From an uncultured Burkholderiales bacterium (lineage in GTDB: Bacteria > Actinomycetota > Acidimicrobiia > IMCC26256 > JAMXLJ01): a stretch of DNA of 64,000 bases. The stretch is from contig CAZJSY010000002.1 of NCBI GenBank assembly GCA_964548555.1, positions 43,568-107,567 of the forward strand. The letters run 5' to 3'. Positions 4,519-20,157 of this stretch are shown here, in pieces; position 1 is the stretch's first letter, and every line of letters starts with the position of its first letter. The position numbers and the translations under genes were made by a program. Under the pieces are notes generated by a model, which saw nothing but the letters and a program-made list of their open reading frames with translations, did not search any database and had not been told where the DNA came from.

Positions 4519-4565
4519 CAGTTGGGACACTTGTTCGTTCATACAGCGAAGAAGTGTCCCAACTG
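4519..4565. repeat. 14-bp perfect inverted repeat (REP-like or bidirectional terminator) between convergent genes
   Basis: CAGTTGGGACACTT (4519-4532) / AAGTGTCCCAACTG (4552-4565). Confidence 0.7.
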
Positions 4566-15429: not shown

Positions 15430-16665
15430 ATGGGGGTTCGCCGTCTCGCGATTCTGAGCGTCCACACCTCGCCGCTCGCCCAGCCCGGTTCGGGTGACGG
15501 CGGCGGTCTCAACGTCTACGTGCGTGCGCTCGCGTCGTCACTCGCCCGCGCCGGCGTGGAGTGCGACGTCTACACCAGGGCACAACGTCGAGGCGCACCC
15601 CGCGTGGTCGATGTCGAGCCGGGGTTCCGTGTTGTGCACCTGCCGGTCGGGCCGCCCGCGCCGGTGTCGAAGGACGACCTGGTCGATCTCGTCGACGACC
15701 TGGCCGACGCGACGCTCGACCACATCACGCACACCGACGCGTCGTACGACTCCCTGCACGCGAACTACTGGATCTCCGGTGCGGTCGGCCATCGCCTGAA
15801 GCACGATCTCGACCTGCCGCTCGCAGTCACGTTCCACACGCTCGCGAAGGTCAAGGCCGAAGCGGGCGTCGACGACGACGCGCCGATCCGTCTCGAGGTC
15901 GAGTCGCAGGTCATCGACTGCAGCGACCTCGTGTGCGCGTCCACCGACGAGGAACGCGCGCAGCTCGTCCAGCTGTACGGCGCGCAGGGCGACCGCGTCG
16001 AGATCGTCCCGCCCGGCGTCGACCATGAGCTCTTCTCGCCGGGCGGCCCGGACGACCGGGCTCGGGCACGCGCCTCGTTGCACGTCGGCGGGAGCCCTGT
16101 GCTGTTGTTCGTGGGCCGTATCCAGCCGCTGAAGGGCGCCGATGTCGCGGTGCGATGCCTCGCGGAGCTCGAGCACCGCGACGCGACGTTGCTCGTCGTC
16201 GGCGGTCCGAGCGGAGGTGGAGGAGACGCGGAGCTGCAGCGTCTCCATGACCTTGCGCGGGAGCTGCGCGTGCACGATCGGGTCCGGTTCGTCGCGCCGC
16301 AACCGCACGAGCGGCTCCAGACGTTCTACCGAGCCGCCGACGCGTGCATCGTGCCTTCGCGTAGCGAATCGTTCGGGCTCGTGGCGCTGGAAGCGGCCGC
16401 GTGCGGAACGCCGGTCGTCGCGGCGGCGGTGGGCGGCTTGAAGTCGCTCGTCGACCACCGGCGGACGGGCTTCCTCGTCGGGTCGCGGGAGCCGGTCGCG
16501 TTCGCGAGAGCGGTCGACGCGCTGCTGCGCGACCCCGATCGCGCGATGCAGATGGGTGTCGACGCGCATGCCGGCTCGCGGCGGTACTCGTGGAGCATCA
16601 CCGCCGGACGGTTGCGCAGGCTCTACGCCGATCTCGCGGCGGGTGAGCTCGTGAAGTGCGCATGA
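15430..16665 (+). CDS. mshA: D-inositol-3-phosphate glycosyltransferase (mycothiol)
   Basis: HTSPL.QPG.GD.GGLNVY, HANYW.SG, VGRIQPLK, SESFGLVALEA; followed by ybjN-like gene. Confidence 0.88.
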   Translation: MGVRRLAILSVHTSPLAQPGSGDGGGLNVYVRALASSLARAGVECDVYTRAQRRGAPRVVDVEPGFRVVHLPVGPPAPVSKDDLVDLVDDLADATLDHITHTDASYDSLHANYWISGAVGHRLKHDLDLPLAVTFHTLAKVKAEAGVDDDAPIRLEVESQVIDCSDLVCASTDEERAQLVQLYGAQGDRVEIVPPGVDHELFSPGGPDDRARARASLHVGGSPVLLFVGRIQPLKGADVAVRCLAELEHRDATLLVVGGPSGGGGDAELQRLHDLARELRVHDRVRFVAPQPHERLQTFYRAADACIVPSRSESFGLVALEAAACGTPVVAAAVGGLKSLVDHRRTGFLVGSREPVAFARAVDALLRDPDRAMQMGVDAHAGSRRYSWSITAGRLRRLYADLAAGELVKCA

Positions 16666-17135
16666 CGACCGACGGGCGCTCCGGCGACGAGCTCCCCGAC
16701 CTCGACGGCGCCCGCTCGCTGATCGCCGCGCACCTCGAAGGGACCGTCGTCAACGAGCCCTGGGTGCAGCATGTCGAGTACGACCCCGAGCTGCAGCGGT
16801 GGTACGTGCGCTTCGGCTGCGACGGACGGGACGCGGCGACGATCTACTTCGATCTTCATCAGCGGACGCTGCAGTACGAGCTGTACTTCATGCCCGACCC
16901 ACCGCGGAACCAGCTCGAGCTGTATCGCTGGTTGCTGCGCCGCAACCACGGCATGTACGGCGCGAGGTTCTCGCTCGGGCCCGACGGCGACGTCTACCTC
17001 GTCGGCCGGGTGCCGCTCGAGCACCTCAGCGAGACCGAGCTCGACCGGATCATCGGCGTGCTCTACGAGCTCGTCGAGCAGTGGTTCCAGCCCGCGATCC
17101 GCATCGGGTTCGCGCGGTCCGAGCCGGCCTTCTGA
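16662..17135 (+). CDS. YbjN-domain protein
   Basis: YFMP.P..N...LYRWLLRRN..MYG..F.L...GDVYL.G; usual mshA neighbour. Confidence 0.8.
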   Translation: MTTDGRSGDELPDLDGARSLIAAHLEGTVVNEPWVQHVEYDPELQRWYVRFGCDGRDAATIYFDLHQRTLQYELYFMPDPPRNQLELYRWLLRRNHGMYGARFSLGPDGDVYLVGRVPLEHLSETELDRIIGVLYELVEQWFQPAIRIGFARSEPAF

Positions 17136-17150
17136 GCTCGCTCGTGCACG

Positions 17151-17180
17151 TGCGTTGCGTTGCGTTACGTTGCGTTGCGT
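17151..17180. repeat. Tandem pentamer array (TGCGT)x6, one copy TACGT
   Basis: tgcgt tgcgt tgcgt tacgt tgcgt tgcgt read directly. Confidence 0.9.
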
Positions 17181-17210
17181 GTGGATGCGTCGCACTGCTA
17201 GGGTGACATC

Positions 17211-17320
17211 CGACGCCGCCGACGGGCGGGGTCATCGGGCCCGAGGTGCAGGAGCGGCCCGCCGTTCGGGGAAGTGCGGCGGGGTGCGATCGTTCCTCGG
17301 GCCCACCTCGTCTTCGTTTC
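17211..17320 (+). ncRNA. Candidate structured small RNA
   Basis: TAGGGT -10 at 17199-17204; nested stems 17237-17246/17295-17304 and 17258-17264/17277-17283; pyrimidine tail. Confidence 0.45.
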
Positions 17321-17399
17321 CTCGCCGGCGCCGGCGCCGGCGCCCGCAGCGCGCCCTGAGTCCGTCGCAGTCGCGCCCGTCGCCGTTAGCCTCCCCGGC

Positions 17400-18209
17400 A
17401 TGACGCGTACCGCGCTCCTCGGCGGCGGACGCATGGGCGAGGCGCTGCTCGGTGGGCTGATCGACGCCGGCTTCGACCCCGACACCCTCGCGGTCGCCGA
17501 CGTCGATCCCGAGCGCCGCCGCGTCCTCGAAGACCGGTTTCCCGGGGTCCGTGTGGTCCCGACGCCCGCGTGGGCGGTCGCCGACGCCGACGTGGTCGTC
17601 GTCGCGGTGAAGCCCGGCGACGTGCCCGGAGTGCTCGCGTCGTCACTGACGAGCCTGCGTGACGACGCCTTGGTCGTGTCGATCGCGGCCGGCGTGACCC
17701 TGAGCGACCTCGAGGCGGCCGTGCCCCGGCACCCCGTGGTGCGGGCCATGCCGAACACGCCGGCGCTCGTCAGGCGGGGCGCGGCCGCCATCGCGGCCGG
17801 TTCCATGGCCACCGACGTCCATCTCGCGACCGCCGAGCGCCTGCTCGGCGCGGTGGGGGTCGTGGTGCGTGTCCCGGAGTCGCTCCTGGATGCGGTGACC
17901 GGCCTGTCCGGGTCGGGCCCGGCCTACGTGTTCCTCTTCGCCGAGGCGTTGATCGAGGCCGGGGTGCTCGTGGGCCTGCCTCGCCATACCGCCACGACGC
18001 TCGCCGTCGAGACCCTCCTCGGCTCCGCCACGCTGCTGGCCGAGGGCTCGGAGTCGGCGGAGGCGTTGCGCGCCGCGGTCACGTCGCCCGGTGGCACGAC
18101 CGCGGCGGGACTGCTCGCCCTCGAACGGCACGGCTTCCGGGCCGCGCTTCTCGACGCGGTGGCGGAGGCGGCGCGCCGTTCCGCCGAGCTCGGCCGGCCG
18201 GCATCCTGA
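17400..18209 (+). CDS. proC: Pyrroline-5-carboxylate reductase
   Basis: GGGRMG, AVKP, RAMPNTP, TGLSGSGPAY, VTSPGGTT. Confidence 0.95.
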   Translation: MTRTALLGGGRMGEALLGGLIDAGFDPDTLAVADVDPERRRVLEDRFPGVRVVPTPAWAVADADVVVVAVKPGDVPGVLASSLTSLRDDALVVSIAAGVTLSDLEAAVPRHPVVRAMPNTPALVRRGAAAIAAGSMATDVHLATAERLLGAVGVVVRVPESLLDAVTGLSGSGPAYVFLFAEALIEAGVLVGLPRHTATTLAVETLLGSATLLAEGSESAEALRAAVTSPGGTTAAGLLALERHGFRAALLDAVAEAARRSAELGRPAS

Positions 18210-19527: not shown

Positions 19528-20157
19528 TTACTGACCGTCGAGCGCGTGCAGCCGGCTGATCGCCCGCACCAATGACGCGGGCGGAGGCGGTGGCGGCGGA
19601 GGCGGCGGGGGCGGAGGTGGCGGCGGTGGCGGCGCCGGCGCGGCCACTGGTACCGGCGCGGACGGCTGGCTGCGTCGCGCCGAAGAAGTCGGGGTTCCGG
19701 TAGTAGCTGCAGGCGTGCTTGGGGCGGGCTGGGAGGCTAGTTGCATGAACTCCTCGGCGACGTACAACGTCCCGTTGGAGCTCACGACGCCCACACCCAC
19801 GTACCGGAACCCCGGATCTGTGAGATTTGCGTAGTGCGGTGGTGAGTTCACCAGCGCTTGATGGATGGCGCACACGCTGCCCCCCATCCCGACGTTCTCC
19901 CCCAGCCGCGACCACGGCTCCGAGATGCCCGAAGGGAGGTTGGAGTGCGAGATCGAGCCCGCCGCAGCCATGTGCGCGGCCCAGCCCTGTGCCTTCGCCG
20001 TCAGGTTGCCGTTGGTCGCGAGGGGTGGCAGCCCCTTGCCGGCGCGAAGCGAGTTGGTCGCCGAGACGAGATCGCAGTCGGCGTGCGCGGGCCCGGCGGG
20101 CAACGCGACCAGCGAGGTCGCGCCGAGCAGCACGGCCACCACGAAACGCCGAATCAC
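19528..20157 (-). CDS. Secreted CAP/SCP-domain protein with polyproline tail
   Basis: Signal peptide, N..RA..GL..L, ISHS, GENV, SPPHYAN, VGVGV; long Pro run. Confidence 0.85.
   Translation of the reverse strand: MIRRFVVAVLLGATSLVALPAGPAHADCDLVSATNSLRAGKGLPPLATNGNLTAKAQGWAAHMAAAGSISHSNLPSGISEPWSRLGENVGMGGSVCAIHQALVNSPPHYANLTDPGFRYVGVGVVSSNGTLYVAEEFMQLASQPAPSTPAATTGTPTSSARRSQPSAPVPVAAPAPPPPPPPPPPPPPPPPPPASLVRAISRLHALDGQ

Follow-up and report, generated by a model that had tools for sequence, protein, structure and literature searches.

A candidate small structured RNA gene between ybjN and proC recurs across the Acidimicrobiia

The intergenic region between ybjN and proC in an uncultured member of the Acidimicrobiia most probably houses an independent gene for a structured small RNA (sRNA) of about 105 nt, one that is class-wide in its distribution and lies outside Rfam. 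The Acidimicrobiia are abundant, mostly uncultured Actinomycetota of soil and water and, to our knowledge, no regulatory RNAs have been described in them. The whole stretch of DNA that we analyzed, 64,000 nt in length, is referred to here as the window. A first-pass annotation of its sequence had proposed an independent RNA of ≈105–110 nt with a promoter of its own, and the comparative evidence, which consists of a promoter motif at 39 of 47 loci together with conservation and covariation, supports that proposal. On re-reading positions 16500–17700, we found the coordinates of all of the features that it named to be correct throughout. The layout of the locus is as follows.

15430–16665, + strand: MshA-like GT4 glycosyltransferase, upstream neighbor
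16656–17135, + strand: YbjN-family protein, upstream neighbor
17151–17190, + strand: TGCGT/TTGCGT array, with the tandem at 17151–17180 and an extra exact TGCGT at 17186–17190
17175–17204, + strand: predicted promoter, −35 TTGCGT at 17175–80, 18-nt spacer, −10 TAGGGT at 17199–204
17212–17233, + strand: 5′-terminal hairpin P0, with a GACG tetraloop at 17221–24
17237–17304, + strand: main hairpin of 68 nt, composed of P1, a purine-rich internal loop, P2, P3, and the apical loop
17237–46/17295–304, + strand: outer stem of 10 bp, in which GGGCCCGAGG pairs with CCTCGGGCCC
17258–64/17277–83, + strand: inner stem of 7 bp, in which CCCGCCG pairs with CGGCGGG
17265–76, + strand: apical loop TTCGGGGAAGTG, also given as UUCGGGGAAGUG
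17305–17322, + strand: pyrimidine- and T-rich 3′ tail ACCTCGTCTTCGTTTCCT, with 7 T in 18 nt
17323–17344, no strand assigned: (CGCCGG)3.7 repeat identified by TRF, outside the conserved element
17387–18209, + strand: proC, with a −10-like TAGCCT at 17387–92, then 7 nt, then the ATG at 17400

Besides the three genes in this layout, the flanking ORFs of the window include one for an HTH_17 protein; the proC orthologs carry Pfam P5CR_dimer/F420_oxidored. The MshA-like GT4 and YbjN genes are the synteny partners kept most often beside the RNA. The MshA (mycothiol) label itself is not secure, because the MshA-like glycosyltransferases of all 151 class genomes score below the curated TIGR03449 cut-off of 462.5 bits, the best of them reaching 445.5. 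Elsewhere in the window, an ORF on the − strand (19528–20157) encodes a secreted-looking protein with a C-terminal run of 21 prolines, and the GGC-rich repeats that TRF reports at 19580–19644 match the end of this ORF.

The hairpin is conserved as a discrete unit. A DNA search of 40 relatives returned separate matches to exactly positions 17238–17304 of the window at 76–86% identity, including in relatives that do not have ybjN next to proC, and BLAST located the hairpin in 22 of 29 loci from relatives. Scanning a single genome from each species with a sequence pattern yielded at least 120 matches. About two thirds of the matches listed represent the true motif, nearly all of them in Acidimicrobiia, Acidimicrobiales, or unclassified Actinomycetota MAG records, and the remaining matches listed are coding-sequence coincidences, often at Walker-A codons. 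Two “Bifidobacterium” MAG contigs also carry the motif; their GC content is 68–71%, and they are probably mis-binned. Using R1, a covariance model built from the hairpin, we found exactly one copy in each of 62 of the 151 genomes of the class Acidimicrobiia and in 24 of the 36 genomes of the same order, that of the window included. No copy was detected in the searched genomes of four families: f91 (0 of 35, with genomes of about 1 Mb), f26 (0 of 17), f25 (0 of 8), and f10 (0 of 4). Across a phylum sample, 13 of 151 genomes gave a match, one copy each, and 7 of these 13 fall outside the class; one of the seven (L187, in G054) lacks the GGGGAAG loop and, being probably a false positive, was left out. 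The element is likewise single-copy in its own genome, which eliminates a repeat or mobile element as its identity.

Folding and covariation both point to a conserved RNA structure. The + strand of a 141-nt segment folds with an energy of −86.8 kcal/mol, compared with −75.5 ± 4.15 kcal/mol for shuffled sequences (z = −2.72, with 0 of 200 shuffles as good), whereas the − strand reaches a z of only −1.41. P1 comprises 10 bp plus G·U/C-G, and P3 comprises 7–8 bp. The main alignment, A1, holds 81 instances that were collected with a pattern fixing 22 bases, so that the invariance of those 22 columns is by construction; six pattern matches in coding sequence (L040, L053, L063, L081, L139, and L151) were left out. 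A second alignment, A2, contains 15 reverse-strand self-hits, which make it unusable, and it was not used. From A1, RNAalifold predicts P1 and the apical stem P3; P3 and the basal part of P1 covary strongly. In the 81 aligned sequences, pairing is kept in 96.9% of cells, and nine pairs show double changes. Cells with double changes number 121, whereas the shuffles have 34 ± 5; not one of 500 shuffles comes up to the alignment on any measure, and slid controls of the same structure are 33–52% paired. Conservation and covariation in relatives, on which the original proposal hinged, are therefore both found.

The same architecture persists at greater divergence. All 49 model hits fold as one three-helix hairpin with a purine-rich internal loop, and P1 covaries among them too (for example, CCCAAGG/CCUUGGG and CCGAGAU/AUCUCGG). 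The loop core GGGGAAG is present in every one of the 49, and the G-rich loop highlighted in the first-pass annotation accordingly stays in the model. For P0, RNAalifold on 35 sequences predicts seven pairs, each of which (7 of 7) shows compensatory double changes, around a tetraloop of the GACG/GNRA type. Another suggestion, that AGGAGCGG could pair alternatively with TCGTTCCT, holds in part: 6 of 8 positions pair, but the two segments are not fully complementary.

The substitution pattern also identifies the transcribed strand. G·U cells outnumber A·C cells by 199 to 18 in A1, and by 55 to 17 without the two conserved wobble pairs, an excess that marks the + strand, carrying GGGGAAGU, as the RNA strand. 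In the alignment of relatives, the near-invariant blocks CCCGAGGUGCAGG, CCGUUCGGGGAAGUGCGG, and GUUCCUCGGGCC alternate with variable, length-polymorphic segments. The constant parts are the apical loop, a G·U/U·U-containing stretch above P1, and the purine-rich internal loop, and the helices between them change in sequence and length with their pairing kept. Constant loops held by varying but paired helices suggest an RNA whose loops something recognizes.

The promoter assignment is a motif match only: TTGNNN-N16–19-TANNNT occurs within 90 nt upstream of the hairpin at 39 of 47 loci, whereas the opposite strand has it at none of the 47. The −10 element ends 31–37 nt before the hairpin where P0 is present and 6–12 nt before it in the lineages from which P0 is missing. 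A generic E. coli-type promoter scan reported no promoter in the window. Transcription would proceed rightward from the housekeeping-type promoter (−35 TTGCGT, −10 TAGGGT), with a predicted start site near 17211, and the transcript would fold into the 5′ tetraloop hairpin P0 followed by the 68-nt three-helix hairpin. The GC-rich basal stem and the pyrimidine tail would then probably terminate transcription, placing the 3′ end at about 17305–17322 and giving an RNA of about 105 nt in which the main hairpin probably doubles as the terminator stem.

Features of the 3′ end vary with base composition. A GC-rich basal stem of 10–12 bp is found in all members, and the tail in the window, which corresponds to a conserved CGCGUC/U-rich tail in relatives, is weak. 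Clear T-rich tails directly follow P1 in lower-GC members (L188, from the unpublished genome G127, as well as L189, L190, L191, and L193). High-GC members have a weak U-tract, the 15 nt that follow the hairpin containing 3.4 T on average versus 2.5 in the control. A terminator scan detected no terminator in the window.

A second distinctive feature of the locus is the repeat array that leads into the promoter. TRF describes 17151–17180 as a repeat of period 5 with 6.0 copies and 92% matches, and its units read TGCGT three times, TACGT once, and TGCGT twice, the last TTGCGT (17175–17180) serving as the −35 element 18 nt before the −10. The six TGCGT pentamers originally reported for this interval are therefore five exact copies and one TACGT variant, and a sixth exact copy lies outside it at 17186–17190. 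TGCGT occurs 69 times in the 64 kb of the window, compared with six copies here within 40 nt. In the same place, the three other genomes of the genus have three to four TTGCGT-like hexamers at 10-bp spacing, the last of which is again the −35; in the window, this 10-bp phase is retained by every second unit of the 5-bp tandem. Phased TTGCGT copies are kept only in the four genomes of the genus, and the loci of other families have a single CTTGCG(T/C) −35, with the array not seen there. Contigs from sequencing runs X1 and X5, which belong to two studies and one of which may be the source sample, carry the array without insertions or deletions. We interpret the array, from its sequence and phasing, as copies of the −35 hexamer repeated every 10 bp on one helix face, a feature specific to the genus. 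A protein regulator that binds the TGCGT repeats, as the first-pass annotation envisaged, is possible.

The RNA is almost always located downstream of, and co-directional with, the MshA-like and ybjN genes, and for this reason it could arise from, or serve, the 3′ end of their operon, whether as a terminator, a stabilizing hairpin, or a 3′-UTR-derived sRNA, with no promoter of its own. By hand tally, about 48 of 62 carriers have the RNA downstream of a co-directional MshA-like gene, at a distance of at most some 2 kb; in most loci the ORF that precedes the RNA encodes YbjN or GT4, and the basal stem and tail do resemble a terminator. We nevertheless consider such an origin unlikely, given that the promoter motif at 39 of 47 loci (0 of 47 controls) falls between ybjN and the hairpin and that terminators need no invariant apical or internal loops. 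Most of the remaining carriers argue in the same direction. RNA and promoter together are inverted relative to the MshA-like gene in one of them (G158; in G172 the two are co-directional), mshA-ybjN is 37 kb distant in another (G020), and ten have no strong MshA-like gene at all; the last two lie at contig ends. The idea that the RNA is tied to mycothiol MshA was rejected as well, because the MshA-like gene also occurs in the RNA-less families f25 and f26.

The gene on the other side offers a different possibility, in which the hairpin is a cis-acting leader, either an attenuator or a terminator-embedded riboswitch, governing the gene that follows it (proC in the window). The hairpin could indeed act as a conditional terminator. 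proC follows the RNA on the same strand in 17 loci, and in most genomes of the order, and an M23 peptidase gene does so in 4; in G020 the RNA still adjoins proC. Yet the downstream genes differ between lineages, and in L184–L186, L188–L190, and L108 they lie on the opposite strand, where they encode CLP1-like P-loop and Vgb-lyase-like proteins, ABC ATPases, an ANTAR regulator, and GT4. Other genes also part the RNA from proC in L029 (by 1.2 kb) and L035 (by 0.7 kb). Moreover, a TA(G/C)CCT-like hexamer precedes the proC start codon by 5–9 nt in 17 of 18 loci (window positions 17387–17402 and relatives), which indicates a leaderless-type proC with its own promoter and bears out the earlier view that proC can do without a leader from this region. 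Terminator-embedded riboswitches of the thiS/HMP-PP class are known always to precede the same kind of gene. Like the present RNA, they consist of one long hairpin with conserved internal loops and a terminator-like basal stem; unlike it, they have a constant gene class on their 3′ side, rather than varied downstream genes and a leaderless proC. A leader function is, in our assessment, distinctly improbable.

The remaining explanations dispense with a noncoding RNA altogether. The conserved unit might operate as DNA, as a protein-binding palindrome or a recombination site that works in either orientation, and this would account both for its occurrence in the two orientations relative to the GT4 gene and for its mirror likeness to the mraW motif, which is seen on the opposite strand only (see below). 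However, a DNA element of this kind is hard to reconcile with the large excess of G·U over A·C on one strand, with helices that change length while keeping their pairing, and with a promoter that is always on the same strand as the RNA, and we regard it as very improbable. Least credible of all is a protein-coding origin, be it a small ORF or the N-terminal extension of ProC from a GTG at 17274. Although the proC frame in the window extends without a stop as far back as 17202, it closes after P1, past the hairpin, in 16 of 17 relatives and never covers the loop there, so that the conserved protein anticipated as an alternative in the first-pass annotation does not materialize. The spacers of 18–25 and 16–23 nt do not keep to multiples of three (their sum modulo 3 splits 38/25/18). 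In G002, of the same genus, proC starts about 20 nt past the hairpin and the (CGCCGG)n is absent; neither this stretch nor the 17274 extension is therefore conserved even within the genus.

We compared the candidate with known RNAs. A search of Rfam 15 with the window and 40 related loci found no family at threshold and no match on the RNA strand, in agreement with the initial impression that the RNA belongs to no named family. The literature that we consulted on the mraW motif and RNA, on proC, mshA, and ybjN motifs, and on Acidimicrobiia RNA motifs contains no description of the present RNA. A divergent signal recognition particle (SRP) RNA is excluded as well, as RF00169 has no match in the region and SRP RNA is located elsewhere in 5 of 5 genomes, including that of the window. 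The SRP RNA of the window’s genome, G000 (RF00169, 82.3 bits), maps to contig C2:109463–109562, about 1.9 kb past the end of the window.

The 6C RNA (RF01066) is a widespread actinobacterial sRNA with two C-rich loops and serves as a model for loop-mediated pairing in Actinomycetota. It shares with the present RNA a small size, conservation, Hfq independence, an actinobacterial distribution, and conserved residues in hairpin loops, but it has two C-rich loops in place of one G-rich loop, and RF01066 has no match in the region. We also considered 6C as a pairing partner. The single match in the genome scores 40.1 bits against a threshold of 47 bits and lies in coding-looking sequence, so no convincing 6C is present there.

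The one family with any resemblance is the mraW motif (RF01746), and the resemblance is to its mirror image. On the strand opposite to the RNA, RF01746 scores 16.3 bits (E = 8.2) in the window and 27.8 bits in L042, in relation to a gathering score of 50 bits, and it matched none of 20 further loci. Conversely, of 33 true mraW loci, 10 are matched by R1 on their opposite strand; the best E-value is 0.0017, though E-values from this model are rough. The two RNAs are alike in being actinobacterial, single-copy, long imperfect hairpins, and the reverse complement shares three blocks in order, GCCCGAG, CG-UU-GGGGAAGU-CG, and UCGGGC. They differ in several respects. The mraW motif is located in the mraZ-rsmH spacer, just after mraZ, and the present RNA between ybjN and proC; mraZ in the genome of the window is on another contig, C366. 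A promoter motif is found at 39 of 47 loci of the present RNA but on neither side of the mraW motif (0 of 32 in each orientation), and the mraW loop is C-rich (ACUUCCCC), unlike the G-rich loop on the supported strand here. In another order, 94 of 121 genomes carry the mraW motif, and no genome in the phylum sample has both it and the present RNA. Annotation of the mraW motif on the wrong strand does not explain the relationship, because its own G·U excess of 79 versus 18 favors the annotated strand, and the lack of a promoter motif in either orientation argues further against it. From the sequence comparison, the mirror-image likeness appears to be real but weak.

The passages on the mraW motif in two Corynebacterium glutamicum papers merely list it (PMC4046766, PMC3890552). 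According to one of them, the mapped mraW transcription start site is at position 2,266,932 and the Rfam mraW motif spans 2,267,021–2,266,916, so that the start site is near the 3′ end of the motif and most of the motif would lie upstream of the mapped 5′ UTR (PMC3890552). Within the Acidimicrobiia, we observed a long hairpin in the mraZ-rsmH spacers of five genomes (L277–L281, in G020, G014, G024, G343, and G022), with a conserved core GCCCC(U)ACUCCGCCCGCUU(U/C)C. RF01746 has no matches in same-class genomes, this hairpin included; the hairpin perhaps represents a divergent form of the mraW motif. One of these spacers, L279 in G024, also contains a tandem array of about 12 GGCGACAC octamers downstream of mraZ.

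As to function, we favor action in trans for the predicted sRNA. Its invariant G-rich apical loop and its purine-rich internal loop point to either a C/U-rich RNA or a protein as the partner. Base pairing of the exposed G-rich loop with such an RNA is put forward tentatively, at less than even odds, and a protein-binding role is only slightly less likely. The predicted sRNA may also be the sponge or protein decoy that the first-pass annotation envisaged. Among the genomic complements of the loop, we found no convincing target. The loop complement ACTTCCCCGA occurs 23 times versus 5 for a control, and the occurrences inspected are coding; many of the pattern matches are Walker-A codons (GSGKS), and others fall in a 41-bp palindromic repeat. 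A scan for 10-mers with wobble pairing gave 8267 matches and no useful enrichment. Pairing with the mraZ-rsmH spacer of the same genome was rejected, as in each of 5 genomes the duplex energies for the apical region do not improve on background (background fraction at least as good, 0.13–0.89).

The 41-bp palindromic repeat has the form cAGTTGGGACAcTTtCCCG-N7–8-CGGGAAAGTGTCCCAACTg and is found at 4522–4562 of the window and in 49 other places in G000, where the regular expression TTGGGAC-N20–45-GTCCCAA likewise retrieves 50 copies. In many of these the left flank is rich in C and the right flank in G. The repeat resembles a REP/MITE-like element, is weakly matched by RF01746, and in some of its arms contains a 10-mer of the sRNA loop.

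The mirror likeness lends itself to a more speculative proposal, which we hold to be decidedly unlikely: the sRNA and the mraW motif would be mirror-image descendants of one ancestral hairpin, generated by inverted duplication from the leader of the dcw operon, and the sRNA would be a past or present trans-encoded antisense partner of the motif through loop–loop pairing. In a variant of this idea, one factor would read both loops. If true, such an origin would give an orphan Rfam cis-motif its first partner in trans and would tie an sRNA of class-wide distribution to the control of mraZ-rsmH and of cell division.

Our preferred reading is that of an independent sRNA gene. Its single-copy, class-wide occurrence, strong covariation, invariant loops, predicted promoter of its own, and lack of an Rfam match make the RNA a good candidate for a new RNA family. 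The predicted sRNA would offer a concrete object for the study of Hfq-independent RNA regulation in high-GC bacteria, and its mirror likeness to the orphan mraW motif may give an unusual lead on how such RNAs originate.
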